Part shown: positions 2,338 through 23,706 of the stretch, piece by piece
Layout of the letters: each line of letters begins with the position of its first letter
How positions within the stretch are numbered: position 1 is the stretch's first letter
Assembly (NCBI RefSeq): GCF_000968375.1
Contig: NZ_CP009933.1
Location: forward strand, 1,770,577-1,794,576
Length of the DNA: 24,000 nt
Direction: 5' to 3'
Source: Clostridium scatologenes
Lineage (GTDB): Bacteria; Bacillota; Clostridia; Clostridiales; Clostridiaceae
Program-made: the position numbers and the translations under genes
The notes under the pieces: model-generated
What the model saw: the letters and a program-made list of their open reading frames with translations, nothing else
Told to the model about the DNA's origin: nothing
Databases searched by the model: none

Positions 2338-2480
2338 TTTTTTCTCCTCTCATTCTTCATCTAAAAGTTTTATTAATTAAAATTATATTTTTATACATTA
2401 ATATTCCGTCTGCAATTTGTTATTAATTTATTAATTTTTATATACTTTTTTTGTTAATTTATTAACTTTTCTGTTTTAAT

Positions 2481-2512
2481 AATTAGGTTGGATTTAAAAA
2501 TCCAACCTAATT
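2481..2512 (-). terminator. Strong palindromic stem-loop between the dehydrogenase and MFS genes (intra-operon terminator, attenuator or RNA-processing site)
   Basis: AATTAGGTTGGATTT AA AAATCCAACCTAATT forms 15-bp perfect arms, 20 nt past the stop of the 2532-3401 gene. No clean U-tract follows on the minus strand. Confidence 0.5.
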
Positions 2513-2531
2513 GGATACTAAATGTTAGCCA

Positions 2532-3401
2532 TTACTTAAAGTATAATTCCTTAACTTCTTTTGCTGGCATTTCTAATCCAGTATATAACTTAAAGGCTTC
2601 TGCTCCTTGCCATAATAACATTCCTGTACCATCTACTGTCTTACATCCAGCAGCTTCAGCATCTTTTAAAAACTTTGTTTGTTTTGGATTATATACTGTA
2701 TCTGACACAACTAAATCTTTTCTAAAAACTGAATTATCTTTTATTGGAGATTCATCTTCATGAGGGTGCATTCCTACTTTTGTTGCATTTACTAAAATAT
2801 TAGAAGATGCAATTTTTTCTCTAAGTTTTTGTCTATCTTCTAAGTCATACAACTCTACAACACACTGTGGCACTTCTTGCTTTAATTTTTCAATAGTTTC
2901 TTCAGCTCTTTTATAGAAATCATCCTTTATATTAAATATGGAAATTTCCTTAGCTCCATCTAAAGCACATTGTACTTGAATAGCTGTTGCAGCACCACCT
3001 GCACCAATAATAGTTATATTTTTACCTTTTACCTCTACTCCATTTTCATTTAAGCTGCGCACAAATCCAACACCATCTGTAATATTTCCAGTTAATTTAC
3101 CATTGTTATTGACAATAGTATTTACTGCTCCTACTATACGAGCAGCTGGAGATAGCTCATCCATATATTTAACTACTTCACTCTTACATGGCATTGTGAC
3201 ATTTGACCCTTTAATATTCAAAGTCTTAATAGCTGCAATAGCATCAGGAACTTTTTCTAAAGAAATGTCAAAGGCTAAATATGCAGAATCTATTCCTGTT
3301 TTTTGAAAGCTGTAATTGTACATAGCAGGAGATCCTGAATGTCCTACTGGTGTACCTATTAAACTATATAAAGCTGTTGTTCCTGAAATTCTTTTTTCCA
3401 T
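2532..3401 (-). CDS. Quinate/shikimate 5-dehydrogenase, YdiB-class paralog (289 aa)
   Basis: SDH-family motifs are present: GHSGSPAMYN, GSNVTMPCK, GAVNT and the GAGGAATA glycine loop. The loop is followed by FNIKDDF; an acidic residue after the beta-strand suggests NAD preference, as in YdiB. It aligns without gaps to the 7597-8469 paralog. Confidence 0.9.
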   Translation of the reverse strand: MEKRISGTTALYSLIGTPVGHSGSPAMYNYSFQKTGIDSAYLAFDISLEKVPDAIAAIKTLNIKGSNVTMPCKSEVVKYMDELSPAARIVGAVNTIVNNNGKLTGNITDGVGFVRSLNENGVEVKGKNITIIGAGGAATAIQVQCALDGAKEISIFNIKDDFYKRAEETIEKLKQEVPQCVVELYDLEDRQKLREKIASSNILVNATKVGMHPHEDESPIKDNSVFRKDLVVSDTVYNPKQTKFLKDAEAAGCKTVDGTGMLLWQGAEAFKLYTGLEMPAKEVKELYFK

Positions 3402-3438
3402 AATGTAAGCCCCCTAAAATTGTTATATTGCTATATCA

Positions 3439-5373
3439 TTATATTTGTAATGCTGCATCTAGCGCTTCTTTTGTTGCATCTAATGCTCTACGTGCTCTTG
3501 TTGCATCTCCAATAACATAAGTTTCTTTTACAACTTTTTTAACTTCTTCACTTAATGGATCATAGTTACGTGATCCCATAGCAAGAACTACTGAATCAAA
3601 ACCATGAGCACTTTGTCCTACTCCATCTGCAAGTGTATAATCTACGCCGTCTTCAAAGAATTTTGCAACTTTTGCTCCTGTAATAGTTTTAATTTTATAT
3701 TCATCAAAATCTTTCATTAAATATTTGCGGTGTTCTGATATTACATCAGCTCCTACTTCATCACGAAGTTCTACAACAGTAACATCATGTCCAAGTTCTC
3801 CTAAGAAAGCAGCTGTTTCACATCCAACCATACCGCCTCCTACAACAAGAACTTTTTTTCCACAAACTTCTTTTCCATCAAGAAGATCAACTGCATGGAT
3901 CAATCCAGACTCATTGATTCCTGGTATAGGAAGTACAAGTGGTGTTGCTCCTGTAGCTAAAATTACTGCATCAGGTTTTTCTTGTGATATTATTTCAGGA
4001 GTTACCTTTGTATTCATATGGATTTCCACGCCATATTTGTTACATTTATTGATATAACTGCGTACCATATTTGTAATGTCGCCTTTTCCTGGAGGATAAG
4101 CTGCTAAACGCATTTGTCCACCAAGTGTATCAGTTGCTTCAAACAATATTACATCATGGCCTCTCTTAGCACATACCCATGCTGCAAGCATGCCACCAAC
4201 TCCGCCTCCAACAACTACTACTTTTTTACTAGTATCTGCTTGTTTTAACTCATCTTCTCTTCCAAGTAGTGGATTAACAAGACAAGTAATTGGATTTCCT
4301 TGATACATGTTGCAAACACATCCTTGTAAACAAGCAATACATGGAGTTAATTCATCCAAGCATCCAGCTGCAGCCTTATTAGGTGTTTCTGGATCAGCTA
4401 AGCTTTGACGTCCAAAGGCTACTAAATCACATCTTCCTTCACGAACTAATATTTCTGCATAATGTGGTTCTGTAAAACGTCCTACAACAATAACAGGAAT
4501 ATTTACTGCTCTTTTTATTTCTGTAACTAATTCAGCATTAAAGCCGCCATGTATAACTGTAGGTGCCCACATATATTCATCTTTAAGATGTACAGCACGT
4601 GAAACATGAAGTCCATCAATACCACACTCTTCTAAATAAGCAGCAATTACTGCACTATCGTGAACATCTAATCCACCTGCAACTTCATCACTAGAATTTA
4701 TACGGCATATAATAGCTATAGAATGTCCAACTTTTTTTCGAATATTTTCAATAACTAAACGAGGAAGTCTCATTCTATTTTCAAAGCATCCTCCAAATTC
4801 ATCTACACGTTTGTTTGTTCTTGGAGATAGGAAACTACTAATTAGATATCCATGTGCACAGTGTACTTCTACTGCATCAGCTCCAGCTTTCTTCGCACGT
4901 ACTGCTGCATCACCATATGCTTCAATTAATTCATAAATTTCTTCAGTAGTCATTGCTTCAGGTATATTACGACCTAATGCTGATGGTATTGCTGACGCAG
5001 ATTTTAATGGATATCCAGCAACTTTTGCATTACCTTCAGGTCCTGCATGTTGAAGCTGAATAGATATTTTAGCACCATTTTCATGACAAGCGTCAATGAC
5101 ACGTTTAAAGCTTTCTACTGTACTATCATCAAATAAGCAAGGTTTTCTAGGACCTCCCTTAGCTTCTTTATGCACAACTGTAGCTTCAAAAGTTATTAAT
5201 CCAAAACCACCTTGAGCACGTTTACTATAATAGGCCAATGATTTATCACTCATAGTTCCATCTGTATTTGCAAAATTGTTTCCCATAGGTGAAACAACAA
5301 AACGATTTGGAACTGTCATTGGACCAATTTTTATCGGAGCAAACATGGATTTAAACATCATAAAAAATCTCAT
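3439..5373 (-). CDS. 2-enoate reductase / 2,4-dienoyl-CoA reductase-like flavoprotein (OYE FMN domain + [4Fe-4S] + FAD/NAD(P)H domain, 644 aa)
   Basis: The N-terminal OYE TIM barrel shows PMGNN, HCAHGYLISSFLSP and RxNxRxDEFGG motifs. The Cys cluster is CIACLQGCVCN...C. Two Rossmann GxGxxG motifs are present (VVGGGVGGM and VVGGGMVGCE). The true start may be one of the internal Met codons at 5361/5358 (MMFKSMF...). Confidence 0.9.
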   Translation of the reverse strand: MRFFMMFKSMFAPIKIGPMTVPNRFVVSPMGNNFANTDGTMSDKSLAYYSKRAQGGFGLITFEATVVHKEAKGGPRKPCLFDDSTVESFKRVIDACHENGAKISIQLQHAGPEGNAKVAGYPLKSASAIPSALGRNIPEAMTTEEIYELIEAYGDAAVRAKKAGADAVEVHCAHGYLISSFLSPRTNKRVDEFGGCFENRMRLPRLVIENIRKKVGHSIAIICRINSSDEVAGGLDVHDSAVIAAYLEECGIDGLHVSRAVHLKDEYMWAPTVIHGGFNAELVTEIKRAVNIPVIVVGRFTEPHYAEILVREGRCDLVAFGRQSLADPETPNKAAAGCLDELTPCIACLQGCVCNMYQGNPITCLVNPLLGREDELKQADTSKKVVVVGGGVGGMLAAWVCAKRGHDVILFEATDTLGGQMRLAAYPPGKGDITNMVRSYINKCNKYGVEIHMNTKVTPEIISQEKPDAVILATGATPLVLPIPGINESGLIHAVDLLDGKEVCGKKVLVVGGGMVGCETAAFLGELGHDVTVVELRDEVGADVISEHRKYLMKDFDEYKIKTITGAKVAKFFEDGVDYTLADGVGQSAHGFDSVVLAMGSRNYDPLSEEVKKVVKETYVIGDATRARRALDATKEALDAALQI

Positions 5374-5414
5374 CCTTTCATTTTTTGAAATCCATTAAAA
5401 TTTATAATATATTA

Positions 5415-6269
5415 CTATTTTGCATTTGGAGAAACTTCTGGCCAAGCTTTATCTAATACTTTTATAGTATTGTCATATGTGTGCTTAGCTGCTTCAGCAA
5501 CACCTTTTTCTAAAATAGCATCACTTATTACTTCAACACCAATACATGCAGGTTTTATACCTTTTTCTTTAATCATTTGAACAAAACCTTCTGTCACATT
5601 AATTCCAGTGCCTGGTGCAAGTCTGTCATGCATTGATTCATCTCTTAATATAGATTTTGCATAAGGTCTTTCATAAACATCATTGATCTGGATGGATACA
5701 ATTTTATCAGCTGGTATACCTTCTAATAATTTAATATCATTTTCCTGATTTGCTCTTGCCCAATGCCATGTATCTAATATAAGTTTAGCATTGTCGCAGC
5801 CAGAAGCTTTAACTACTGCCCAACCTTTTTTAATATCTTGAACACCACTGTATGGCATAGGTTCTAAACCAATAACATACTTACCAGCTCTTTGACATAA
5901 TTCTTTTAACTTTTGTGCAGTATGTTCAACACTATAATCTTCCATTAATCCAATATTTATGTGGTTAACACCAAATAATTCACACATATGGAAACACATT
6001 TGTTCTTTATATTTTTCTTCATAAGAACGATTATCTTCAGCCCAAAGTGTAATATATTCAACTTCAGTAACCTTCATATCATATTTTTTAAGAATATCAA
6101 GTATATCAGCATCAAATAAACCTTCATTTAATGCATCTACATATGTTTCAGCACGAAGACCTATTCCTTCATAACCTGCTTCTTTTGCTGCTTTAACTCT
6201 TTCTTCAAATTTACATTGATCTCCTAATGTCCATGAACTAACTGTAATTGGTGGGCATTGATTTTTCAT
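5415..6269 (-). CDS. Xylose isomerase-like TIM-barrel (sugar phosphate isomerase/epimerase superfamily) protein; candidate 3-dehydroshikimate dehydratase or IolE-like ring dehydratase
   Basis: The ORF-track start at 6287 is a TTG without an SD. The ATG at 6269 (MKNQCPPITV...) has SD GAAAGGGG 7 nt upstream. The ILDTWHW and DRLAPGTG motifs are typical of this fold. The specific function is inferred only from the adjacent dehydroquinase and quinate dehydrogenase paralogs. Confidence 0.75.
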   Translation of the reverse strand: MKNQCPPITVSSWTLGDQCKFEERVKAAKEAGYEGIGLRAETYVDALNEGLFDADILDILKKYDMKVTEVEYITLWAEDNRSYEEKYKEQMCFHMCELFGVNHINIGLMEDYSVEHTAQKLKELCQRAGKYVIGLEPMPYSGVQDIKKGWAVVKASGCDNAKLILDTWHWARANQENDIKLLEGIPADKIVSIQINDVYERPYAKSILRDESMHDRLAPGTGINVTEGFVQMIKEKGIKPACIGVEVISDAILEKGVAEAAKHTYDNTIKVLDKAWPEVSPNAK

Positions 6270-6393
6270 GATATTATCCCCTTTCAAATGAAAAATTGTT
6301 ATTAATTTAGCTTAGTTTTTAATTTATGTATTGAAGTATTTAATAAATTAATCAAGTTAGTTTCTACCGGTAGTTTCCTATTAAAATAGGCCT

Positions 6394-6426
6394 AATTTCA
6401 ATTAAGTAATCGATTTAATTGAAATT
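6394..6426. promoter_or_regulatory. Perfect 12-bp inverted repeat in the divergent control region (candidate operator)
   Basis: AATTTCAATTAA-gtaatcgat-TTAATTGAAATT. The 12-mer ATTAAGTAATCG (6401-6412), which runs from the end of the left arm into the spacer, recurs at 9335-9346 in the second divergent region. Confidence 0.35.
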
Positions 6427-6464
6427 TATAAACTCATTATATTATATAAATTTTCATAAAACAA

Positions 6465-6516
6465 ATTGATAATTTCCTATCAATTCATAGATTTTATGTA
6501 TAGTTTATGTTATAAT
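6465..6516 (+). promoter_or_regulatory. Putative lysR-1 promoter with an overlapping LTTR-box-like palindrome
   Basis: Palindrome ATTGATA-N6-TATCAAT at 6465-6484. The -35-like TAGATT lies at 6488-6493, followed by a 17-nt spacer. The extended -10 TGTTATAAT has its TATAAT at 6511-6516. Confidence 0.4.
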
Positions 6517-6544
6517 TGTGCCAATAATATTTTGAAAGCGAGGC

Positions 6545-7435
6545 ATGAAATTGAATTTATATCATTTACGCTATTTCGTAACTCTAGCACACTTAGAACA
6601 TTACACAAGAGCTGCTGAGAAATTAATGATTACTCAGCCAAGCTTGAGCCATGCAATATCCTTATTAGAAAATGAACTAGGCATCTCTTTATTTGAAAAA
6701 GACGGTAGAAACATTGTACTTACCAAATATGGAAAAGTATTTTTAAATAATGTAGAAAAATCCTTAGAAATTCTTGATTCTAGTGTTAAAACTTTAAAAC
6801 TTATTGGCAGTGGTGAAGGTAAAATTCAGCTAGCCTTTCTTCGCACATTAGGAACGGATTTCGTACCAGATATTACTCGAAAATTTCTAGAAACTCATAG
6901 TGAAAAATCAATAGAATTTAATTTCAACACTATAGCAACTTCTGTTGATATTATCCAAGGTCTCAAGGAGAGAAAATACGACATTGCTTTCTGCTCGAAA
7001 ATCGGTAAAGAACAAGGTATAGAATTTATACCAGTTGCTAACCAAGAGCTAGTACTAATTGTTCCTACTGACCATCCACTTGCAGATAAAAATTCAATTG
7101 ATTTAATTGATACAATCCCGTACCCTCAAATTTTTTTTACAAGCAAAAGTGGACTTAGACCTATAGTTGATGATTTGTTTACACAAATCGGTAAAGAACC
7201 CAAAATTGTTTATGAAGTTGAAGAAGATCAAGTAATTGCTGGACTTGTTGCTAAAAATTTTGGCATTGCAGTTTGTCCTAACATGCCTATTTTGAATTCC
7301 ATGGATTTGAAAGTAATTAAAATTTCAAGTCCAAATTTTGAAAGACTATTTTATTTAGCAATGTTGAAAGATGCTTACCTTGCACCAGTTGTTCATGAAT
7401 TTAAAAATTTTGTTATAGAAAATACTGAAATATAA
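6545..7435 (+). CDS. LysR-family transcriptional regulator (paralog 1)
   Basis: N-terminal wHTH LRYFVTLAHLEHYTRAAEKLMITQPSLSHAISLLENELG plus a C-terminal substrate-binding domain. It is divergent from the 6269-1135 gene set. Confidence 0.95.
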   Translation: MKLNLYHLRYFVTLAHLEHYTRAAEKLMITQPSLSHAISLLENELGISLFEKDGRNIVLTKYGKVFLNNVEKSLEILDSSVKTLKLIGSGEGKIQLAFLRTLGTDFVPDITRKFLETHSEKSIEFNFNTIATSVDIIQGLKERKYDIAFCSKIGKEQGIEFIPVANQELVLIVPTDHPLADKNSIDLIDTIPYPQIFFTSKSGLRPIVDDLFTQIGKEPKIVYEVEEDQVIAGLVAKNFGIAVCPNMPILNSMDLKVIKISSPNFERLFYLAMLKDAYLAPVVHEFKNFVIENTEI

Positions 7436-7471
7436 AGTTTAGTTGTATTATATGTATACAAAATCTTATTT

Positions 7472-7525
7472 CAGAGGACAATTGACAAAGATCATCCTTC
7501 ATTGTCATCTGTCAATTGTCCTCTG
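7472..7525. terminator. Large GC-richer hairpin between convergent genes (putative bidirectional terminator or palindromic element)
   Basis: Perfect 16-bp arms CAGAGGACAATTGACA (7472-7487) / TGTCAATTGTCCTCTG (7510-7525) with a 22-nt loop. There is no clean U-tract on either side. CCTCTG is duplicated directly after the 3' arm. Confidence 0.5.
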
Positions 7526-7596
7526 TCCTCTGAAAAAGTTGTGTCGCATTATCCTCATATTAAATCTAAGTTTTGTATATATCAAAATTGAATTAA

Positions 7597-8469
7597 TTAA
7601 TATTTAATGTTTAATACTTTTTTCATGTGTTCTATAGGCATTTCTTTTCCAGTCCATAGTTTGAAAGCTGCTGCTCCTTGGAATAACATCATTCCAAAAC
7701 CATTCATTGTTTTACAGCCTACTTCTTTTGCCATTTTTAACAATGCTGTTTCTGCAGGTGCATAAACTGTGTCTGTTACAATTAAATCTGGTCTTAAGAA
7801 GCTTGGATCTGGAATATAAGTTTGACCTTCTAAAGGTTTCATTCCAACACCAGTTGCATTAGCAAATAAATAGCTATCTGCAATTTCCTCTTTTAATTTT
7901 GCAAGATCATCTAAATCATATAAAGTTGCTTTACAGTTAGTTTTTTCATTAATATCTTTTACTGTTTTCTTTCCTCTTTCGAAGAATTCATCCTTACGGT
8001 TAAATATTGATATTTCTTTCACTCCATCTAAAGCTGCTTGTATTTCTATTGCTGTAGCTGCTCCACCTGCTCCTGCTATTGTTATTTTCTTACCAATAAC
8101 ATCAATTCCAGCATCTTTTAATGATTGCATATAACCAATACCATCTGTGATGTGTCCAGTTAAAACACCATTATCATTTACAATTGTATTAACTGCACCG
8201 CAAAGTTCTGCTGCTTCTGATAACTTGTCAAGATACTTATGTACCACTGTTTTATTTGGCATTGATACATTTGATCCACGAACTTTCATTGCTCTGAAGC
8301 CTTTTATGGTATCCTCTAATTGTTCATTACCTACTTCAAATGCAAGATAAGCATAATCCAAACCTAATTTTGCAAATGCTTCGTTGTGCATTGCTGGTGA
8401 ACTTGAATGTCTAATTGGGTATGCTATTAATCCTATAAGTTCTGTGTGCCCTGTAATTCTTTCTGCCAT
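7597..8469 (-). CDS. ydiB: Quinate/shikimate dehydrogenase, YdiB-like (290 aa)
   Basis: From memory it is closely similar to E. coli YdiB over its full length (YPIRHSxSPxMxN, GSNVSMPNK, GAVNTIVND, GAGGAATA, FNRKDEFF, GMKPLE, GCKTxxGxGM). It lies immediately downstream of aroD. SD AGGAG is present. Confidence 0.92.
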   Translation of the reverse strand: MAERITGHTELIGLIAYPIRHSSSPAMHNEAFAKLGLDYAYLAFEVGNEQLEDTIKGFRAMKVRGSNVSMPNKTVVHKYLDKLSEAAELCGAVNTIVNDNGVLTGHITDGIGYMQSLKDAGIDVIGKKITIAGAGGAATAIEIQAALDGVKEISIFNRKDEFFERGKKTVKDINEKTNCKATLYDLDDLAKLKEEIADSYLFANATGVGMKPLEGQTYIPDPSFLRPDLIVTDTVYAPAETALLKMAKEVGCKTMNGFGMMLFQGAAAFKLWTGKEMPIEHMKKVLNIKY

Positions 8470-8526
8470 AATAATCGTCTCCTTTATATTTAATTTATAT
8501 TTTTATATAGTTTTTTATTATAATAA

Positions 8527-9294
8527 CTATTTATTAGCACTAATAAGTGAAAGTATTTTGTATAATTCATTTGCTTCTAATTGTCCTGGAGCTGATGCAA
8601 CCTTTGCTGATCCAAAAGTAAGCGCTGATCCAAAAGTTTCACCTGCTAAACGACTTATAACTCCTAGTGGTCCCATAGACATAGTTATAATCGGTGTTTT
8701 ATCATGATCACGTGTCATTTCATTTGTAGCTGTCAATAATTCAATTACATCTGTGCTACTTAAAGGCATTACTGCTATCTTAGGTACATCTGCTCCTAAT
8801 TCTTGCATTTTGCACAATCTTGCTATTATTTCATTTTTGCTAGGTGTTTTATCAAAATCATGATTAGACATAACTACTTTTACATCATGTTCATGTGCCA
8901 CTTTTACAATTTTCTTTACGGCTTCTTCATCACCAATAAATAACTCCACATCAATCATATCTGCATTGCCTGTTGCTGATATTGCCTTTTGTAATTCTAT
9001 ATAATATTCTAATGTAATTTCCTTTGCTCCACCTTCTTTAGCACTCCTAAAAGTAACTAACAAAGGTGTATCTCCTAATGCTTTTCTAACTTCAGCTAAA
9101 ATTTCTTTTACTTTTTCAATTTTATATACGTCTTCGTAAAAATCTATTCTCCATTCTGCAACATCCAATTTAATTTCTTTTAAATAAGAAACATCCTTCA
9201 TAATTTCTTCATTGCTGCATCCCATGAATGGCACTGCTATTTTGGGAATTCCCTGACCTAATTTCATATTTCTTACTTGAACTATACTTTTCAT
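8527..9294 (-). CDS. aroD: 3-dehydroquinate dehydratase, type I
   Basis: 255 aa, the typical type I length and layout. Family motifs AEWRIDFY, LVTFRSAKEGG, SNHDF and KIAVMP (Schiff-base Lys region) are present. Confidence 0.95.
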   Translation of the reverse strand: MKSIVQVRNMKLGQGIPKIAVPFMGCSNEEIMKDVSYLKEIKLDVAEWRIDFYEDVYKIEKVKEILAEVRKALGDTPLLVTFRSAKEGGAKEITLEYYIELQKAISATGNADMIDVELFIGDEEAVKKIVKVAHEHDVKVVMSNHDFDKTPSKNEIIARLCKMQELGADVPKIAVMPLSSTDVIELLTATNEMTRDHDKTPIITMSMGPLGVISRLAGETFGSALTFGSAKVASAPGQLEANELYKILSLISANK

Positions 9295-9329
9295 TTTTTA
9301 CTTCCTTTCTTAACTTTTTAAATTATTGA

Positions 9330-9355
9330 TTAAGATTAAGTAATCGTTATCTTAA
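9330..9355. promoter_or_regulatory. Inverted repeat centred on TAAGTAATCG upstream of aroD (candidate operator)
   Basis: TTAAGAT-taagtaatcgtt-ATCTTAA. It shares the 12-mer ATTAAGTAATCG with 6401-6412, in the same orientation. Confidence 0.3.
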
Positions 9356-9538
9356 AGAATTAAAAAAATTATTACTTATAAATTTTAACAGATAATACTG
9401 TACAAAACACTACATAATAAAAGCTTTTCTACTATAATTGTATATTATATAACAGTTTAGTTATTTTTTTAACATATCTTGACTTTATTATACTGCAATA
9501 CATTTGATAATTCTAATACATATTTTTATGATTATTAA

Positions 9539-9567
9539 TAGTTTTTATCTATCAATTATGATATACT
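9539..9567 (+). promoter_or_regulatory. Putative lysR-2 promoter
   Basis: TAGTTT (9539-9544), a 17-nt spacer, then extended -10 TGATATACT (TATACT at 9562-9567). The spacer contains the palindrome TATCA-ATTA-TGATA. The layout aligns with the other two lysR promoters. Confidence 0.4.
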
Positions 9568-9597
9568 ATGTATTATTCTATTTAGGAGGACTACTCT

Positions 9598-10494
9598 ATG
9601 AACTTAAGCCAATTATACTATTTCAGAAAAATTGCTCAATTAGAGCACTTCAGACAAGCAGCTTTAGAATTAAATGTATCTCAACCTAGTTTAAGTAAAT
9701 CAATGCTAAATTTAGAATCAGAACTGGGTATTTGCTTATTTGATAAAGAAGGAAGAAATGTTCATCTAACTAAGTATGGCAAAATTTTTTTACAATATGT
9801 AGAAAATATTTTAAACGAATTAGAAAATGCCAAAAATAAGATGAATCAATTAGCAAGCAGTGAACATGGTCATGTTGATATAGCATATATTTCGCCATTA
9901 GCACAATATTATATACCTGATACAGTGCGTAGTTTTTTAAATATAGAACAAAATAAAAATGTTACTTTCACATTTAAACAAGGTTTTTCTTACGAAATGA
10001 TAGAGGAACTTAAAAATGATAAATATGATTTAATTTTTTGTTCTCACATAGAAAATGAACCTGATATTATGTTTGTTCCAATTATTAAAAAGGATTTATT
10101 TGTTATTGTTCCTTTTGATCATCCGCTTTCAAAATTTGAAAGCATTGATTTGAAAGATATTGAACCATATCCTTTAGTAGCATATGATAAAACTTCTGCT
10201 ATGGGAAAAACTACTTTAAAATTATTGAAAAGTATTAATTTGAATCCAAAAATTATTTGTGAAGCTGCTGATGAATATGCTATTTCTTCACTAGTTGCTG
10301 CAAACTTTGGAGTAGCTATTATAGCTGAAGCGCCTGCTCTTGCACATGCTAAAGTAAAAAAAATAAACATCAACAGCCCAAAATATTCTCAAATAATATA
10401 TCTTGCATATAAAAAAAATAAGTATTTTCCTTCTGCTGTTATTAATTTTATTTCATATATAAAAGAAAAAAGTTCTGTAAGTGAATCACTATAA
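9598..10494 (+). CDS. LysR-family transcriptional regulator (paralog 2)
   Basis: wHTH LYYFRKIAQLEHFRQAALELNVSQPSLSKSMLNLESELG. SD AGGAGG lies 9 nt upstream. It is divergent from aroD-ydiB. Confidence 0.95.
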   Translation: MNLSQLYYFRKIAQLEHFRQAALELNVSQPSLSKSMLNLESELGICLFDKEGRNVHLTKYGKIFLQYVENILNELENAKNKMNQLASSEHGHVDIAYISPLAQYYIPDTVRSFLNIEQNKNVTFTFKQGFSYEMIEELKNDKYDLIFCSHIENEPDIMFVPIIKKDLFVIVPFDHPLSKFESIDLKDIEPYPLVAYDKTSAMGKTTLKLLKSINLNPKIICEAADEYAISSLVAANFGVAIIAEAPALAHAKVKKININSPKYSQIIYLAYKKNKYFPSAVINFISYIKEKSSVSESL

Positions 10495-10499
10495 AAATA

Positions 10500-10534
10500 G
10501 CCGATTAAGGTAAAATCAAATCACCTTAATCGGC
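10500..10534. terminator. Bidirectional intrinsic terminator between lysR-2 and the second enoate reductase
   Basis: 12-bp perfect stem GCCGATTAAGGT / ACCTTAATCGGC with an 11-nt loop. T-runs follow on both strands (ACTATTTTT on plus, CTATTTTTA on minus). Confidence 0.75.
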
Positions 10535-10558
10535 ACTATTTTTACTTAATTTAAATTA

Positions 10559-12565
10559 TTACTTAAATGCACCCATAACCTCTAAAGTTTTAACTACATT
10601 TCTCCCCTCTTCAACACCAGATATTATTCTTCTTGCTCTTACACTATCACCAATGTTAAGAAGTTTTACATTATTTTCTGAAGCATACTCTTCAACCATA
10701 GGGAATTCAGCATTTTCTGATCTCATTCCTAGGCATACAAAACCATAGTCGAAGTTTATATCTACAGCAGCTCCTTCAGGATTTTTCACTGTAAACGAAC
10801 TATCATTAACAGTCTGAAGTGCAGTATTTGCAAGCTGTTTAACATTATTTACTTTCATCATATGATATACATCAAGCTTTGTATTAGTATCTAAATCTTT
10901 TCCTATTACTGGCATCATTTCAATGACATCAACATCTGCTCCTCTTTCAGCAAAGAATTCTACAACATCAAGTCCTACTGCTCCTCCGCCTACTACTACA
11001 ACCTTTTTATCTTTACAGTCTTTATCAAACTCTTTGATATTATTAATAAATCCAAATGTTGATTTGACATTTGATCCAGCTTTATCTACACGATCCAACA
11101 ATCCTGCTATTGGAGGAAGTAATGGTTTTGATCCTGTTGCATTTATTATAAGGTCTGGATTTAATTCATCTAGTACTTCCTTTGAAGCTTTTGTATTAAG
11201 TTTTATTTTAAGGTTAGGAAGTTCCTTTACTCTATTTTGTAAATATTCTACAAAATAATGAATTCTTGCTTTTGCTGGAATTGTTCCGATCATCCAAGCT
11301 AAACCGCCTAATCTATCCTTTTGTTCTAATAGTGTCACATTACAACCTACTTCTGCAGCAGTACAGGCAGCTTCCAGTCCTGCTGTACCTCCACCAATAA
11401 CTACAACGTTAACAGATTTCTTTACTTGTTTTTCTTTATAAGCATCTTCAAATAAAAGATCTGGATTTATACTACAACGAATTGGTTGTGATTTTGCTAA
11501 ACGATGATCAGCACATCCTATATTACAAGATATACATCTTCTAAGAAGGTGCTCCTGTCCATCCGCAACCTTATTAGCCCAATATGGTTCTGCAATTAAA
11601 CCACGACCCATAGCTAGAAGATCTGCATCTCCTTTAGCAATAATTTCTTCAGCAACTTTTGGGGAACGAATGTTTCCTGAAGTTATTACTGGTTTATTGA
11701 ATTTTTCTTTAAAAGCTTTAGCCATATAGCTTCTCCAGCCTTCTGCTAAACTCATTTTATCATGTTGAAGATATAAAGTATCATTTTGTGCTATAGAAAT
11801 ATTTAGGAAATCTACTTTTTCCTGCATATATCCCATCAATTCTAAAGAATCTTCAAGAGTATTACCTCCCTCAATCATATCATCCGCACTAATTCTTATA
11901 GAAATTGGAAACCTAGGACCAACTGCAGCTCTCACACTATCTATAACCATTACAGCAAATCTTGCTCTATTTTCAGCACTTCCACCAAATTCATCAGTTC
12001 TATCATTAAATAAAGGTGATAAGAATTGATTAAGTAAATATGAATGACCTGCATGAATTTCAACTGAATCAAATCCTGCTAATTGAGCTCTTGCAGCAGC
12101 TTCTCCATATTTTTTTGCAATATCTTTCATTTCCTCTACAGTTAAAGGTCTTGGAATTGCTCCACCTGTCTTTGAAGGAATATTAGAAGCAGAAACTGCT
12201 TGTACTCCATCTAATCTTGCAGCATAAGCAGATGCTCCAGCATGGTTAAGCTGAATTGAAACTTTAGCTCCATAAGCATGAAGTCTTTCCACTAATGTAT
12301 AAAGTCCAGGTACATATTGGTTATCATCAATTCTGCACTGCTTTGTTCCGTTAGTTCCCATTGGAAAATCAATACAAGCATTTTCAACTATGATAAGTCC
12401 TGTACCACCTTTTGCTCTTAATTCATAATATTTAATCATCTCTTCAGATACTTCTGCACTAACAGTAGCAAAATTACTACCTATTGGTGGCATAACAGTC
12501 CTATTTCTAAGAGTCATTCCATTTATAGTAATTGGTGACAAAAGATTTGGATATTTGCTTTTCAT
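10559..12565 (-). CDS. 2-enoate reductase / 2,4-dienoyl-CoA reductase-like flavoprotein, second paralog (668 aa)
   Basis: OYE-domain motifs PPIGSN, HAGHSYLLNQFLSP and NDRTDEFGG are present. The [4Fe-4S] motif is CISCNIGC-x11-C. Two GxGxxG motifs are present (VIGGGTAGLE and VVGGGAVGLD). SD GGAGG is present. Confidence 0.9.
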   Translation of the reverse strand: MKSKYPNLLSPITINGMTLRNRTVMPPIGSNFATVSAEVSEEMIKYYELRAKGGTGLIIVENACIDFPMGTNGTKQCRIDDNQYVPGLYTLVERLHAYGAKVSIQLNHAGASAYAARLDGVQAVSASNIPSKTGGAIPRPLTVEEMKDIAKKYGEAAARAQLAGFDSVEIHAGHSYLLNQFLSPLFNDRTDEFGGSAENRARFAVMVIDSVRAAVGPRFPISIRISADDMIEGGNTLEDSLELMGYMQEKVDFLNISIAQNDTLYLQHDKMSLAEGWRSYMAKAFKEKFNKPVITSGNIRSPKVAEEIIAKGDADLLAMGRGLIAEPYWANKVADGQEHLLRRCISCNIGCADHRLAKSQPIRCSINPDLLFEDAYKEKQVKKSVNVVVIGGGTAGLEAACTAAEVGCNVTLLEQKDRLGGLAWMIGTIPAKARIHYFVEYLQNRVKELPNLKIKLNTKASKEVLDELNPDLIINATGSKPLLPPIAGLLDRVDKAGSNVKSTFGFINNIKEFDKDCKDKKVVVVGGGAVGLDVVEFFAERGADVDVIEMMPVIGKDLDTNTKLDVYHMMKVNNVKQLANTALQTVNDSSFTVKNPEGAAVDINFDYGFVCLGMRSENAEFPMVEEYASENNVKLLNIGDSVRARRIISGVEEGRNVVKTLEVMGAFK

Positions 12566-12814
12566 TTTTCTTCCTCCATTTTATACCTATTTTATCTTTA
12601 TATAGTAGAATTTAGAAACAACATGGAAAGTGTTTTCTTAACATATTGCATTTATATCGTGTTTGTATCAAGAATTGGATTTTCACTACATTAAATACTT
12701 TTTTATCAATACAACTAAACTTAAATGAATGTGTTTGTTAATTAACATTTATCTCGTGATTCATTATAGCAAAACCGTTATCATAAATCTAATTCATATT
12801 TTCCTTTAAAGCTA

Positions 12815-12844
12815 TAGAATTTATTTATATATTCTATTATAATG
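12815..12844 (+). promoter_or_regulatory. Putative lysR-3 promoter with an embedded inverted repeat
   Basis: TAGAAT (12816-12821), a 17-nt spacer, then TATAAT (12839-12844). The inverted repeat ATAGAAT-N10-ATTCTAT (12815-12838) spans the -35 element and the spacer. Confidence 0.4.
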
Positions 12845-12912
12845 AGTACTATAAACGATTAAAATTTCTAAAAAAAGTAGTAAAATAACAATATAGAAAG
12901 AGGTGAATTTAA

Positions 12913-13824
12913 ATGAATTTGAAACAGCTTCAATACTTTCGTATTTTAGCACAAACTGAGCATTACACAAAAGCAGCTGAAAAATTATACATAACACAAC
13001 CTAGTTTAAGTTACAGTATTTCAGAATTAGAGAGGGAATTTGGTACTCAATTATTTGAAAAGGAAGGTAGAAATGTAAAACTGACAAAATACGGACGCTT
13101 TTTTCTTTCTTATGTAGAAAAAGCCCTTGATGAATTGGATTTGGGTAAAAATCTATTGTTAAAAATGGTAAGCCCTACGGAAGGAAAGGTTGACCTAGCT
13201 TTTATTTACACTTTAGGTTCCAAATTTGTACCTAACATAGTTCAAAGCTTTTTAAATGAAACTAGTTATAAAAATGTAGAATTTTCTTTTGCTCAAGGAA
13301 ACACTCAATATTTAATTAATAACCTTAAAGAAGGAAAATTTGACCTGGTTTTTTGCTCTTTTGTTGAAAATGAACCAAATATTGATTTTATTCCTATAGC
13401 ACAAGAAGAATTAGTTATAATTGTACCTAAAGATCATCCTCTTTCTAATTACAAAAGTATAAGTTTAAATGAAACTTCACCTTACCCTTTTGTTTTCTTT
13501 AGCAACGAAAGTGGTTTGCGCCCACTTATAGACAAAATGTTTAAAGATTCAAATATAGTACCTAAAATTGCATGTGAGGCTGAAGAGGATACTGCTATAG
13601 CTGGCTTTGTGGCTATCAATTATGGAATAGCAATTATTCCTAATATACCATCTTTAAAAAATTTTGATGTAAAAATACTTAAAATCAAACAACCAAATTA
13701 TAAAAGATTTATTTATGCAGCTACCGTTAAAAATCGTTATAACACTCTTGCTACAGATTCTTTTCGTTCATTTGCAATTAAATATGGTAAAAAAAATTAT
13801 TTAGACACAAATAAGTACATATAA
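12913..13824 (+). CDS. LysR-family transcriptional regulator (paralog 3)
   Basis: wHTH LQYFRILAQTEHYTKAAEKLYITQPSLSYSISELEREFG. SD AAGAGGTG is present. It is divergent from the 10559-12565 reductase. Confidence 0.95.
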   Translation: MNLKQLQYFRILAQTEHYTKAAEKLYITQPSLSYSISELEREFGTQLFEKEGRNVKLTKYGRFFLSYVEKALDELDLGKNLLLKMVSPTEGKVDLAFIYTLGSKFVPNIVQSFLNETSYKNVEFSFAQGNTQYLINNLKEGKFDLVFCSFVENEPNIDFIPIAQEELVIIVPKDHPLSNYKSISLNETSPYPFVFFSNESGLRPLIDKMFKDSNIVPKIACEAEEDTAIAGFVAINYGIAIIPNIPSLKNFDVKILKIKQPNYKRFIYAATVKNRYNTLATDSFRSFAIKYGKKNYLDTNKYI

Positions 13825-20896: not shown

Positions 20897-21910
20897 TTAG
20901 ATTGCCTTTTTCTCTATTTTAGCTATTTGTGATAATTCCTTCATAAGTTCTTTAAATCTCTCTGGTTTTATAGATTGTTGTCCATCACACTTTGCATTAG
21001 CTGGATCATTGTGTACTTCAATGATAAGTCCATCTGCTCCTACTGCTAGAGCCGCTTTTGCTAAGGGTTCTACCATCCACCACATTCCTGCTGAATGGCT
21101 TGGATCAACTATGATAGGTAAGTGACTTAATCTTTTTATTGCAGGTATAGCACTTAAATCTAAGGTATTTCTCGTATATGTTTCGAAGGTTCTTATACCT
21201 CTTTCACACAATATTACATTTTCATTTCCACCTGCCATTATATATTCAGCAGACATGATTAATTCCTCAATGGTTGCGGATAAGCCTCTTTTTAAAAGAA
21301 TTGGTTTTCTTGTTTTTCCGAGTTGTTTTAATAAATCAAAGTTTTGCATGTTTCTTGCACCCACTTGAATAACATCTACATCTTCAACAAATGTATCTAT
21401 CATATCAGCAGACATTATCTCTGTTACTATAGGAAGTCCTGTTTCTTTTCTTGCAAGCTTAAGAAGTTCTAATCCTTCTTGCTTAAGTCCTTGAAAACTG
21501 TATGGTGAGGTTCTAGGTTTGAAAGCTCCTCCTCTTAAAAATCCAGCTCCACTTTCCTTTACCGTTTTTGCAATTTCTAAGATTTGCTCTTCACTTTCTA
21601 CCGAACAAGGTCCTGCCATAATAGCTATCTTATCTCCACCTATTACTTGATCATTAACTTTTATTTCTGAATTACTTGGATGAAATAATCTATTTGCTAA
21701 TTTAAAAGGCTGTTGTACTTTAGTAACTCTTTCTACACATTCATTAGCCTGAATTTTATCAGGATCAAGCTTTGTAGTATCTCCAACAATTCCTAATATA
21801 CATTGATTTTCTCCTTGTATTAAATTCACTCTACAGCCCTCCATCTCTATTCTCTCTTTTATTCTTTCTATTTCCTCTCTTGTTGCACCACATCTCATAA
21901 TTACTACCAT
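20897..21910 (-). CDS. aroF: 3-deoxy-7-phosphoheptulonate (DAHP) synthase, type I-beta, with an N-terminal ferredoxin-like regulatory domain
   Basis: The catalytic barrel carries GPCSVES, KPRTSPYSFQGL and DPSH motifs. About 70 extra N-terminal residues (MVVIMRCGATREEIERIKERIEMEG...) resemble the Thermotoga-type regulated DAH7PS domain. SD AGGAGG lies 8 nt upstream. Confidence 0.95.
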   Translation of the reverse strand: MVVIMRCGATREEIERIKERIEMEGCRVNLIQGENQCILGIVGDTTKLDPDKIQANECVERVTKVQQPFKLANRLFHPSNSEIKVNDQVIGGDKIAIMAGPCSVESEEQILEIAKTVKESGAGFLRGGAFKPRTSPYSFQGLKQEGLELLKLARKETGLPIVTEIMSADMIDTFVEDVDVIQVGARNMQNFDLLKQLGKTRKPILLKRGLSATIEELIMSAEYIMAGGNENVILCERGIRTFETYTRNTLDLSAIPAIKRLSHLPIIVDPSHSAGMWWMVEPLAKAALAVGADGLIIEVHNDPANAKCDGQQSIKPERFKELMKELSQIAKIEKKAI

Positions 21911-22072
21911 AAAATAAACCTCCTTAAAATTTTAAAAATGTTATTTTGTATATTGCTTTTATATTAAATAATTTATTTGCCGGCTTAAAATTATTTTTAT
22001 AAATTTTAGATTAAATTGTTATTTTTTTCATAAAATACATGATATAATTGAGTACTTTACCTCATTATGGAT

Positions 22073-22102
22073 AAAAAAAAGTAAGGCTCTAATGAGCCTT
22101 AC
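22073..22102 (-). terminator. Intrinsic terminator between the aromatic-rich small ORF and aroF
   Basis: On the minus strand: GTAAGGCTC-ATTA-GAGCCTTAC followed by T8 (22080-22073). It lies 22 nt after the small-ORF stop and about 160 nt upstream of the aroF ATG. Confidence 0.8.
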
Positions 22103-22124
22103 TAAACAAATTAAATGTATAGTG

Positions 22125-22295
22125 CTATACGCATAGCATTTCTTTACACCAATTAAATTTCGATCTATTAAACTCATTGAAAAAAAGAATATATATTTTT
22201 TTGCAGAAAAAGTAACCAGCGCTAAAATAAAAGTAGCCCCAGCTAAAATAAAAATAATATTTTCCGCTTATTCCCTTTCCAATGATATTTTTCAT
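22125..22295 (-). CDS. 56-aa Tyr/Phe/Trp-rich small ORF; candidate leader peptide of the aro operon (or an orphan small protein)
   Basis: SD GGAGGG lies 7 nt upstream of the ATG at 22295. The sequence is MKNIIGKGISGKYYFYFSWGYFYFSAGYFFCKKIYILFFNEFNRSKFNWCKEMLCV. A consensus promoter lies upstream and a terminator downstream. Confidence 0.5.
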   Translation of the reverse strand: MKNIIGKGISGKYYFYFSWGYFYFSAGYFFCKKIYILFFNEFNRSKFNWCKEMLCV

Positions 22296-22357
22296 GATTT
22301 TTCCCTCCAAAACAATTTTTATTGGTTTATGTTAAAATTAACTTGATATTAGTTGTA

Positions 22358-22385
22358 ATTATAACATATATTTTTATGATGTCAA
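22358..22385 (-). promoter_or_regulatory. Near-consensus sigmaA-type promoter driving the small ORF (and possibly the aro operon)
   Basis: On the minus strand: TTGACA (22385-22380), a 16-nt spacer, then extended -10 TGTTATAAT (TATAAT at 22363-22358). Confidence 0.55.
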
Positions 22386-22574
22386 TAAATAATTTTATCT
22401 TTTTTAATATTATGATTTTTCATATATACTTAGTTCAATATTTTATATTCTATTTACTAAAGCATAACAACTACTATATTAAAGCAAGAACCAGCTTTTA
22501 TACGCGATGCTAACTATTTTTTTGTACATGTTGTAATTTGCTTTAAATTGAAAAATTTTAATAACAATTGAGCT

Positions 22575-22602
22575 TTGTACTTTTTTCATTATATGGTATA
22601 AT
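22575..22602 (+). promoter_or_regulatory. Putative promoter of the small hydrophobic protein gene
   Basis: TTGTAC (22575-22580), a 16-nt spacer, then TGGTATAAT (TATAAT at 22597-22602). Confidence 0.35.
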
Positions 22603-22684
22603 ATACTCCATAACACATGGTGAATTACTCTTTTATGTGTATAATTTAAAAAATATAAATATATCAATTAGGAGGTTTATTTTT

Positions 22685-22891
22685 ATGATAATCTTAACAA
22701 TACTTTTATCTGCTGTAGTATTCATTCTTTTGGGTTCAGTAATTGCTGCAGTAGCACTACCTATATTTGCTTTTATTTTTGCTATAGGTATAGTAATTTC
22801 AATTTTAGCACTAATATTTAAAATAATTTTTGCTGGACCTTTATTTATTTTAATGATAATTATAGCATTATATTATTTTTTCAAAAGATAA
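22685..22891 (+). CDS. Small hydrophobic membrane protein (68 aa, about two TM helices)
   Basis: SD AGGAGG lies 8 nt upstream of the ATG at 22685. The sequence is MIILTILLSAVVFILLGSVIAAVALPIFAFIFAIGIVISILALIFKIIFAGPLFILMIIIALYYFFKR. A strong terminator follows. The upstream part of ORF-track entry 22568-22891 has no SD. Confidence 0.6.
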   Translation: MIILTILLSAVVFILLGSVIAAVALPIFAFIFAIGIVISILALIFKIIFAGPLFILMIIIALYYFFKR

Positions 22892-22909
22892 TATAATATT
22901 ATAATAAAT

Positions 22910-22949
22910 AAGACTTTGCAAATTAAATGCAAAGTCTTATTTTTTTTTT
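22910..22949 (+). terminator. Intrinsic terminator
   Basis: AAGACTTTGCA-aattaaa-TGCAAAGTCTT followed by a T10 run (22940-22949). Confidence 0.85.
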
Positions 22950-23019
22950 AAAAGTTGTAACTATTTTTTACTTTCTTAATACTATATATAGTGAAGATAG
23001 ATTTTACGGAGGTATGTAC

Positions 23020-23706
23020 ATGTACTATCAAAATGATAGCGAAAATACTAATACTGATATTGACATTGATATGGATCAAAGTCGTCATCATCATCACAGA
23101 CGTGATTGTTGCTGTATGCCATTTTTCCCTTGGATGGGCGGTTGCTCTCCTTGGTTTGGCGGCTGGGGTGGTTGTTCTCCTTGGTTTGGTGGTGGCTGTG
23201 GCTCTCCTTGGTTTGGTGGTGGCTCTCCTTGGTTCGGTGGTGGATTCCAAGGTGCCGGTGCTCAAGCAAGTTGTTCTTGTGGCGCTGGAATGCGTGGTGA
23301 AGATCTAGATATTGACATGGATCAAAGCCGTCACCATCACCACAGACGTGATTGCTGCTGTATGCCATTTTTCCCTTGGATGTGCTCACCTTGGATGTTA
23401 TCACCTTGGATGAACTCACCTTGGTTCGGTGGTGGATTTGGATTCCCTACAGCAGGAGCTCAAGCAAACTGTTCTTGTGGAGCTGGAGCAGGATTCCCAT
23501 TCCAAGGTGCCGGTGCTAAAGCAAATTGTTCTTGTGGAGCTGGAATGCGCAGCGAAGATGATGATATTGATATGGATATGGATGAGGATAGATTTTATCC
23601 TTACTACAAATATCCTAAATATCATAAATACCCATATTATCCATATTACCCTTATTACCCTTATTATCCTAAATACCCTTATCATAGAGACTATTTACCT
23701 TTGTAA
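23020..23706 (+). CDS. Low-complexity Cys/His/Trp/Gly/Tyr/Pro-rich tandem-repeat protein of unknown function (possible spore-coat-like structural or metal-binding protein)
   Basis: SD GGAGG precedes ATG 23014 and ATG 23020, and the spacing is better for 23020. The ORF-track start at 22927 lies inside the upstream terminator. The two repeat copies differ only by synonymous changes in their most conserved 66-nt block. No signal peptide is apparent. Confidence 0.75.
   Translation: MYYQNDSENTNTDIDIDMDQSRHHHHRRDCCCMPFFPWMGGCSPWFGGWGGCSPWFGGGCGSPWFGGGSPWFGGGFQGAGAQASCSCGAGMRGEDLDIDMDQSRHHHHRRDCCCMPFFPWMCSPWMLSPWMNSPWFGGGFGFPTAGAQANCSCGAGAGFPFQGAGAKANCSCGAGMRSEDDDIDMDMDEDRFYPYYKYPKYHKYPYYPYYPYYPYYPKYPYHRDYLPL
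23056..23559 (+). repeat. Intragenic tandem duplication (offset about 246-255 nt), plus short SPW(F/M)GG and C-terminal YPYY micro-repeats downstream
   Basis: 23071-23136 versus 23317-23382 shows 4 mismatches in 66 nt. 23251-23304 versus 23506-23559 is also clearly homologous. Confidence 0.8.

Follow-up and report, generated by a model that had tools for sequence, protein, structure and literature searches.

A 24,000-nucleotide stretch of the Clostridium scatologenes genome (contig NZ_CP009933.1, positions 1,770,577 to 1,794,576 of the forward strand; hereafter the window, whose own numbering is used throughout) carries on its minus strand a short, aromatic-rich open reading frame (ORF) and an intrinsic terminator ahead of an aroF-tyrA-aroB-aroA-aroC-pheA-aroE-aroK operon. 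Comparison of this leader with its relatives suggests, with a probability that we put at roughly 0.8, that it controls the operon as a ribosome-mediated transcription attenuator and belongs to uORF-13, a class predicted by Stav et al. (2019, BMC Microbiol 19:66, PMC6429828; Fig 6b and Additional files 1 and 3). An earlier note, made from the letters of the window alone, had also read the element as an attenuator. The promoter, Shine-Dalgarno (SD) sequence, ORF, aromatic run, tandem repeat, stop-codon hairpin, terminator and operon that it listed were all recovered in place, and its reading withstood all the computational tests that we ran.

Nineteen residues of the leader are aromatic (7 Tyr, 10 Phe and 2 Trp). 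Tyr is first encoded at codon 13, Phe at codon 15 and Trp at codon 19. The central run, with 13 aromatic codons in 18, has the top value among the 17,116 stretches of 18 residues in all six frames of the window, and in 100 shuffled windows the maximum count per 18 averaged 9.3 and never exceeded 12. A tandem repeat with a period of 21 nucleotides (nt) runs through it (2.4 copies, 79% matches, 22208-22257; Tandem Repeats Finder). Searches of Pfam and NCBIfam assigned the peptide to no family, and a comparison with 5.8 billion proteins returned only 34 clusters, all unnamed or called "hypothetical protein"; one of these, checked at its own locus, lies upstream of aroF-tyrA.

The leader is widely conserved. 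Among the best 80 loci around AroF homologues (64-100% identity), 74 have an aromatic-rich small ORF of 40-63 codons directly upstream of aroF; the other six comprise two contigs that end just upstream, three loci in which aroF stands behind another gene, and one further locus. Carriers are found in Clostridium, Tepidibacter, Wukongibacter, Marinisporobacter, Gracilibacter, Dehalobacter, other Peptococcaceae and the Negativicutes (Sporomusa, Veillonellaceae), and Clostridium cadaveris, which Stav et al. name as a carrier, has a clear homologue (L026). A promoter of the TTGAC(A/T)-N16-18-TAnAAT type lies upstream of the leader in most of 73 leader loci, in nearly all loci the in-frame start is preceded by an SD match of 4 nt or more, and an intrinsic terminator is present in all 71 aligned leader loci. 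The earlier note had pointed to related clostridia as the place to look for conservation, and it is there: ORF, aromatic run, SD and start, promoter and terminator are kept in about 74 of the 80 loci and across several Firmicutes orders.

We infer from three independent patterns in these sequences that the leader ORF is translated. The first is conservation of frame: the distance from the core of R1, the 5' strand of a helix described below, to the second GC-rich island, UAGCGCUGG, takes ten values between 58 and 82 nt, with the same residue modulo 3 in 45 of 48 cases. The second is the codon pattern. Across eleven aromatic alignment columns, codon position 1 is U in 90%, position 2 toggles between A and U (307 versus 421) and position 3 is a pyrimidine in 95%, and this U-[U/A]-[U/C] pattern is a signature of Phe and Tyr codons rather than merely of U-rich RNA. 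Tyr and Phe interchange freely; the columns between the P1 strands are 64-100% aromatic, and those of the Y-F pair 100% aromatic. The third is an uninterrupted frame of 40-63 codons, found in every lineage in sequence with a GC content of 30%. The C-terminal third of the leader behaves differently from the rest: it is not conserved as peptide, and the stop codon falls anywhere from 2 to 66 nt past a conserved AUGAG. Different lineages read this AUGAG in different frames (0, 1 and 2, giving NE, DE, LMS or PMS), so that what is conserved here is the RNA and not the peptide.

Translation by itself would also fit an independent gene for a small protein, perhaps a toxin or a membrane peptide of hydrophobic or aromatic character, with a promoter and terminator of its own, the aro operon being expressed from a promoter in the spacer. 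The strength of both signals, the 171-nt AT-rich spacer before aroF in this genome, the good conservation of the N-terminal and central peptide and the annotation "hypothetical protein" in some genomes are what such a gene might look like, but its C-terminal third would then be unconserved as peptide, with stops and frames that vary around an RNA motif that stays, and the conservation of its N-terminus is explained by the covariation of helix P1 reported below. Moreover, the ORF always lies immediately upstream of aroF, and no protein family was found for it. The spacer itself offers little for this alternative. Its length across the loci is 27-278 nt and in many of them only 27-50 nt, which is why aroF is taken to be served by the leader promoter in many relatives, and in the window its best promoter-like site is a weak 9/12 match; a strong second promoter was therefore rejected as unsupported. 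The earlier note had allowed for an independent aroF promoter, and this part of its account is divided: relatives with short spacers leave little room for one, whereas the 171 nt and the 9/12 site of this genome still permit it. We consider a separate small-protein gene very unlikely.

The evidence for a switch comes from the RNA helices. In an RNAalifold analysis of 42 Clostridium-type leaders, codons 4-9 of the ORF (R1, UCAUUGGAAAG...) pair with a pyrimidine tract plus AAUGA on the far side of the aromatic run (R2) to form helix P1. In the alignment 91.5% of the cells are paired (43-62% in slid controls), both sides change in 7 of the 11 pairs, one position showing A-U 17, G-C 13 and G-U 11 times, and none of 500 shuffles reached the covariation score. 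The P1 duplex has a mean energy of -15.0 kcal/mol against -7.5 with shuffled R2, the values for the window being -14.8 and -6.8. Peptococcaceae have different R1 and R2 sequences, GGUAAGAG with CUCUUAUC, in the same place and with the same architecture. Because R1 and R2 flank them, the aromatic codons lie in the P1 loop. The earlier note missed this helix and saw a difficulty in the geometry, the aromatic run being about 100 nt from the terminator; that difficulty disappears once the codons are placed in the loop of an anti-antiterminator.

The 3' end of R2, AAUGAGUUU, is in turn complementary to R3, AAGGCUCAUU, which takes in the terminator's loop and the upper part of its 5' arm. A pairing of AAUGAGUUU with AGGCUCAUU had been put forward in the earlier note as a weak antiterminator candidate, and it gains considerably from comparison: the AUGAG site is the best partner of the terminator 5' arm in 59 of 71 loci, with GUGAG variants in 5 more. 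The six pairs of the AAUGAG:CUCAUU core are paired in all 42 sequences (29-45% in slid controls), and in the Sporomusa group the corresponding pairing is AUGAG-N-CCUUA with UAAGGCUCAU, with a one-nucleotide bulge. On the terminator side the search anchor across the leader loci was CUC[A/G]UU, and 71 of 73 loci carry it in the 5' arm and loop (69 CUCAUU and 2 CUCGUU; L019 and L050 lack it); it is kept in 42 of 42 aligned sequences. UCAUU is common to R1 and R3, the two rivals for one and the same AAUGA in R2, and this three-way constraint accounts for the invariance of UCAUU and AAUGA.

The terminator that closes the leader was rightly called strong in the earlier note. Its stem (22103-22080) has 10 base pairs (bp), 5 of them G-C, and an energy of -15.2 kcal/mol, and runs into U8; the search of the region gave two terminator-like sites, this one included, where 0.2 would be expected by chance; and the stem covaries, with 98.9% of cells paired, compensatory changes in 6 of 9 pairs and a score that none of 500 shuffles reached. 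Between R2 and the terminator lies a variable structure, P2. Its apical hairpin (UGCUAU-GCGU-AUAGCA), which had been noticed before as a hairpin over the stop codon at 22138-22123, holds the leader stop codon and is present in the minimum free energy (MFE) folds. Its base helix, AAUAAAUC with GAUUUAU in relatives, shows some covariation (0.29 versus 0.20, reached by none of 500 shuffles), but no more than 66% of cells are paired in the MAFFT alignment; the segments between R2 and the terminator fold better than shuffles (z < -1.5) in 33 of 70 loci. P2 could stack under the R2:R3 helix.

The predicted pairings show P1, R2:R3 and the terminator helix R3:R4 to be mutually exclusive, which is the kind of arrangement that the earlier note had thought to look for by folding. 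The folds also switch when a ribosome is simulated: with a 30-nt footprint masked at codon 13 or 17, the MFE structure of the transcript up to the terminator loop changes from P1 to R2:R3. We therefore suggest the following model. When Tyr, Phe and Trp are plentiful, the ribosome would run past R2 to the stop codon, which always lies at or beyond R2. Under such conditions, or if the leader is not translated at all, P1 would form or re-form, leaving R3 free, so that the terminator forms and transcription ends before aroF. When Tyr-, Phe- or Trp-tRNA is scarce, the lead ribosome would stall at the first hungry codon (13, 15 or 19), and this ribosome, or one queued behind it, would keep R1 unpaired. 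AAUGAGUUU could then pair with R3 as this emerges, the helix being stacked on the P2 stem; with its loop-proximal part sequestered, the terminator could not nucleate and RNA polymerase would read into the operon. The features involved are collected in the table.

Features of the leader region and the start of the operon (window coordinates)
Feature	Position	Strand	Description
Promoter for the leader and operon transcript	22385-22358	minus	Sigma-A-type, TTGACA-N16-(TG)-TATAAT; "near-consensus" in the earlier note, found to be a 12/12 consensus match plus upstream TG
Shine-Dalgarno sequence	22308-22303	minus	GGAGGG, 7 nt ahead of the leader AUG at 22295; read directly
Leader ORF	22295-22125	minus	MKNIIGKGISGKYYFYFSWGYFYFSAGYFFCKKIYILFFNEFNRSKFNWCKEMLCV; 56 codons plus stop UAG at 22127-22125
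R1	22286-22268	minus	AUCAUUGGAAAGGGAAUAA; 5' strand of P1, codons 4-10; putative anti-antiterminator strand
Regulatory codon run	22259-22206	minus	YYFYFSWGYFYFSAGYFF; 13/18 codons aromatic; sits in the P1 loop
Inner hairpin	22244-22214	minus	AGCUGGGGC (22244-22236) with GCGCUGGUU (22222-22214); four aromatic codons in the loop; in MFE folds
R2	22192-22170	minus	AUAUUCUUUUUUUCAAUGAGUUU; 5' and middle part pairs with R1 (P1), 3' part AAUGAGUUU (22178-22170) with the terminator 5' arm
P2 spacer structure	22169-22104	minus	Between R2 and terminator; base helix AAUAGAU.../...AAUUUGU, apical hairpin 22138-22123; MFE folds
Intrinsic terminator	22103-22072	minus	R3, 5' arm AGUAAGGCUC plus loop AUUA; R4, 3' arm GAGCCUUACU; then U8
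aroF	21910-20897	minus	DAHP synthase with FXD domain; first gene of the operon proposed to be controlled; Pfam

Several points weigh against this model. The R2:R3 duplex in the window has an energy of -8.9 kcal/mol, which is no better than shuffles and weaker than the -15.2 kcal/mol of the terminator, so that the switch has to be a kinetic one, aided by stacking on P2. The antiterminator core shows no covariation in the Clostridium set, although none is possible because the core is invariant, and in the Sporomusa group P1 is not detectable, the duplex energies there being no better than those of shuffles. In the thermodynamic model a one-ribosome mask at codons 21-29 leaves P1 intact, and the masking of R1 by a single ribosome anywhere in the run was accordingly rejected as a sufficient explanation. 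Some lineages also have a longer N-terminus, which puts the first aromatic codon too far from R1 for one ribosome. Given these two observations, the model needs steric exclusion or ribosome queuing as an added assumption. Timing is another weak point: transcription and translation are reportedly thought to be uncoupled in Firmicutes, on the strength of work on Bacillus subtilis from 2020. In this genome, furthermore, the 171-nt spacer has a conserved hairpin of its own ahead of aroF, and the aromatic run carries a constraint on AGC Ser and GGC Gly codons that a simple attenuator does not need. Finally, our literature searches for experimental or follow-up work on any member of the class found none.

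The constraint on Ser and Gly codons goes together with a conserved inner hairpin in the aromatic run. Its arms are paired in 94% of cells in 42 sequences and 80% in 69, compared with 16-52% in slid controls; covariation was not significant in either set, and we keep the hairpin as conserved complementarity only. The arms coincide with invariant or near-invariant codons: of the sequences that encode Ser in the two columns concerned, 49 of 50 and 61 of 61 use AGC, and Gly is always GGC at the first GC island, the second island being mixed (GGU 34, GGC 26, GGG 3 and GGA 3). The near-invariance of AGC points to a constraint at the level of the RNA. One might go further and take the whole element for a structured cis-regulatory RNA whose signal is not the position of the ribosome but, say, a protein, a tRNA or a small ligand, the ORF being incidental or secondary. 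Such a reading would readily account for the near-complete conservation of synonymous sites (the Ser AGC and first-island Gly GGC), for the inner hairpin, for the persistence of CUC[A/G]UU and AUGAG (with GUGAG and AUGGG variants) across orders, and for an AUGAG that is kept irrespective of reading frame, of which the invariance of UCAUU and AAUGA is already explained by the competition among R1, R2 and R3. It does not account for a conserved SD with an in-frame start, for length changes between R1 and the second GC island that are almost always multiples of 3, for the Phe/Tyr-specific codon periodicity or for a frame kept open over 40-63 codons at 30% GC in about 73 loci, and the amino acids encoded are exactly the end products of the operon. 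Nor does the element resemble a described RNA: an Rfam 15 search of the whole window at gathering thresholds matched no family, including T-box, Phe_leader, Trp_leader and the riboswitches, and an E-value search of 21850-22700 gave just two chance-level matches to small RNAs (E = 4.5 and 6.1). T-boxes, known leader families and riboswitches were rejected on these searches, and we judge a structured RNA sensor of another kind to be quite unlikely.

The sensor might instead be the nascent peptide, as with TnaC or SecM, with FSWGYFYFSAGYF as the segment that arrests the ribosome once a free amino acid or some other signal is sensed, and not when charged tRNA runs short. For a leader peptide the core shows unusual conservation, the non-aromatic S-W-G and S-A-G included, but these non-aromatic positions are conserved at the nucleotide level down to their synonymous sites and coincide with the arms of the inner hairpin, while Tyr and Phe replace each other freely; the logic of a biosynthetic operon, moreover, calls for induction by starvation, which codon runs provide directly. 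We regard arrest by the peptide as highly improbable. A different thought, which would add to the attenuator rather than replace it, is that the near-invariant, GC-rich inner hairpin, conserved even at synonymous sites, and the placement of the regulatory codons in the P1 loop reflect a second functional layer, either a programmed pausing or queuing device for ribosomes, in which the masking of R1 requires disomes, or a binding site for a trans-acting factor. Such a layer strikes us as speculative and unlikely. If it were real, a device of the pausing or queuing kind could make leader-peptide attenuation workable in Firmicutes, in which RNA polymerase runs ahead of the ribosome.

The ribosome-mediated attenuator proposed here can be set beside the trpL, pheL (pheA) and hisL leaders of enterobacteria, in which a run of end-product codons and a terminator are combined with mutually exclusive 1:2, 2:3 and 3:4 pairings, and starvation leads to stalling and readthrough. 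A leader ORF with end-product codons, a terminator, mutually exclusive pairings and the same logic are present in our element, which has no sequence or Rfam similarity to these leaders. Of the pairings expected for the trp/pheA type, 1:2 and 3:4 covary, and 2:3 is seen as conserved complementarity at a conserved position without covariation. The differences are substantial. The regulatory codons of the enterobacterial leaders lie inside region 1, whereas here they lie in the loop between regions 1 and 2, starting 9 nt past R1, and only stalls at the first codons overlap R1. With 56 codons, about 13-19 of them aromatic and of three kinds, the leader is four times longer than the enterobacterial ones (14-16 codons, one kind) and would monitor three amino acids. 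Its ORF reads through region 2, its antiterminator is short and leans on an intervening stem, and its host is a Firmicute, in which coupling of transcription and translation is doubtful.

Much closer is uORF-13, for which Stav et al. list 336 examples (PMC6429828). They come from Bacillales, Clostridiales, Thermoanaerobacterales and Negativicutes, and roughly half of them precede aroF, followed by tyrA and further shikimate genes. The authors describe a short ORF ahead of a terminator stem, with an F-Y-F consensus in the loop of P1, predict that it works like the trp attenuator, and give a locus of C. novyi NT (NC_008593.1:2308872-2309418) as the type; C. novyi is not represented in our set of the best 80 loci. 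Compared with this published description, the element of the window agrees in being from a Firmicute and upstream of aroF, in its ribosome-binding site, short ORF and terminator, and in the aromatic consensus in the P1 loop, and nothing in the description contradicts the assignment. The earlier note's remark that leader-peptide attenuation would be unusual for Firmicutes does not hold in view of 336 examples already published as a prediction. In the parts of the paper cited above, the description of the class is without an antiterminator pairing, the competition of R1, R2 and R3, P2 stacking or experimental data, and we add the first three here.

Other aromatic leaders are less similar. According to Additional file 3 of PMC6429828, the aroR leader of Corynebacterium glutamicum (Actinobacteria) has an F-Y-F leader peptide upstream of aroF and acts by ribosome-mediated attenuation, but it belongs to a different phylum from uORF-13, and the rest of its peptide and its RNA structure differ. 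The uORF-12 class of the same paper and uORFC-13-1 (Brewer et al. 2021, PMC8632094) are, like our element, predicted attenuators with aromatic amino acid ORFs and terminators in Firmicutes or Tenericutes. As described, uORF-12 has its F-Y-rich peptide immediately before P1, a more complex structure and a location mostly upstream of amino acid transporters. Identity with uORF-12 was rejected on the aromatic codons inside the P1 loop, the position upstream of aroF and a range that includes Negativicutes, which the description of uORF-12 does not list. The uORFC-13-1 class is confined to Acholeplasma, upstream of aroF, with a promoter, a ribosome-binding site and a U-run coding for at least one Phe. 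Leader peptides with amino acid codons that replace T-boxes in Firmicutes are also described for the ilv operon of Staphylococcus aureus (PMC5794164) and for hisS/hisZ in Bacillus (PMC2965389), where the amino acids, operons and sequences are other than those of the present element.

Individual relatives show variations on the leader. The window is 97% identical to C. drakei SL1, with 3% difference over 6.1 kb, and one of the differences, at 22166, exchanges Ser for Leu in the non-conserved tail of the leader (NRSKF in the window, NRLKF in SL1). In Tepidibacter sp. Z1-5 a tandem duplication covers the entire leader unit, from SD and 52-codon aromatic ORF to AAUGAG and terminator, and puts two attenuators in series before aroF. 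Sporomusa and its relatives among the Negativicutes (L049-L072) have shorter leaders of 40-44 codons (...QYFFFFAWASFFGAGLF...), and the switch in this group may be built differently. At one locus (L043) the leader ORF has lost its stop and reads through the terminator, reaching 76-89 codons; the source is a metagenome-assembled genome labelled Caulobacteraceae, the locus is Clostridium-like, and the taxonomic label looks wrong for the contig.

A second conserved element stands between the leader terminator and aroF. It is a hairpin or palindrome at about 21997-21966 on the minus strand, with GCCGGC at 21984-21979, and it recurs about 50-80 nt upstream of the aroF AUG (138 nt in L007) in L001-L005, L007, L009, L010, L012, L022 and L029. 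Its stems are wholly different between species (AAAUAAUUU/AAAUUAUUU here, UAGCUCU/AGAGUUA in L005, UUUAAUCUCCAUU/AAUGGAGGUUAAA in L009 and AUAACUUCUA/UAGAAGUUAU in L022), and its loop is conserved as (A)AGCCGGCAA(A), or as GCUAGC in three loci. Counted in each sequence, the ungapped stems have 7-13 bp, with a mean of 9.7 against 4.3 when the flanks are shuffled. The hairpin has no following U-run and no Rfam match, and RNAalifold returned no structure for it, since its AU-rich stems do not line up in the MAFFT alignment.

The operon reaches down to 14122 and, by its Pfam assignments, follows the order given at the outset, its pheA product being a chorismate mutase-prephenate dehydratase; it lacks a dehydroquinase gene. 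Downstream of it, a cluster at 1135-13824 looks like one for quinate or shikimate utilisation. The cluster holds extra shikimate dehydrogenase paralogues (2532-3401 and 7597-8469), a type I dehydroquinase (8527-9294), two flavoproteins that join an Old Yellow Enzyme (OYE) domain to a pyridine-nucleotide-disulphide oxidoreductase, a xylose-isomerase-like TIM barrel protein, a major facilitator superfamily (MFS) transporter and three divergently oriented LysR regulators. On the other side of the leader, a low-complexity ORF of 259 residues on the plus strand (22927-23706) contains the second most aromatic stretch of the window. DIDMDQSRHHHHRRDCCCMPFFPWM occurs twice in this ORF and (C)SPWFGGG several times, and the C-terminus carries a YPYYPYYPKYPY repeat. 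No Pfam family matched it, and a spore coat or exosporium-type protein is one possible identity. Its annotated start is overlapped by a terminator-like hairpin of 15 bp at 22906-22942.

The kind of element described here is thus already in the literature as a prediction, and the copy in the window is a further, unannotated member that is absent from Rfam, Pfam and NCBIfam; our detailed switch is an increment on the description that Stav et al. published in the figure and files cited above. What it adds is a testable model in which R1, R2 and R3 compete through UCAUU and AAUGA, the antiterminator is stacked on P2 and the stop codon lies beyond R2. If this interpretation is correct, the element can be annotated as a regulator for the whole common aromatic pathway together with the Phe and Tyr branches in industrially relevant acetogens, the C. 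drakei/C. carboxidivorans group, and deletion of the terminator or recoding of the leader should derepress the shikimate pathway. The family would also be a convenient system in which to learn how ribosome-mediated attenuation works in Firmicutes, where transcription and translation are presumed to be uncoupled.

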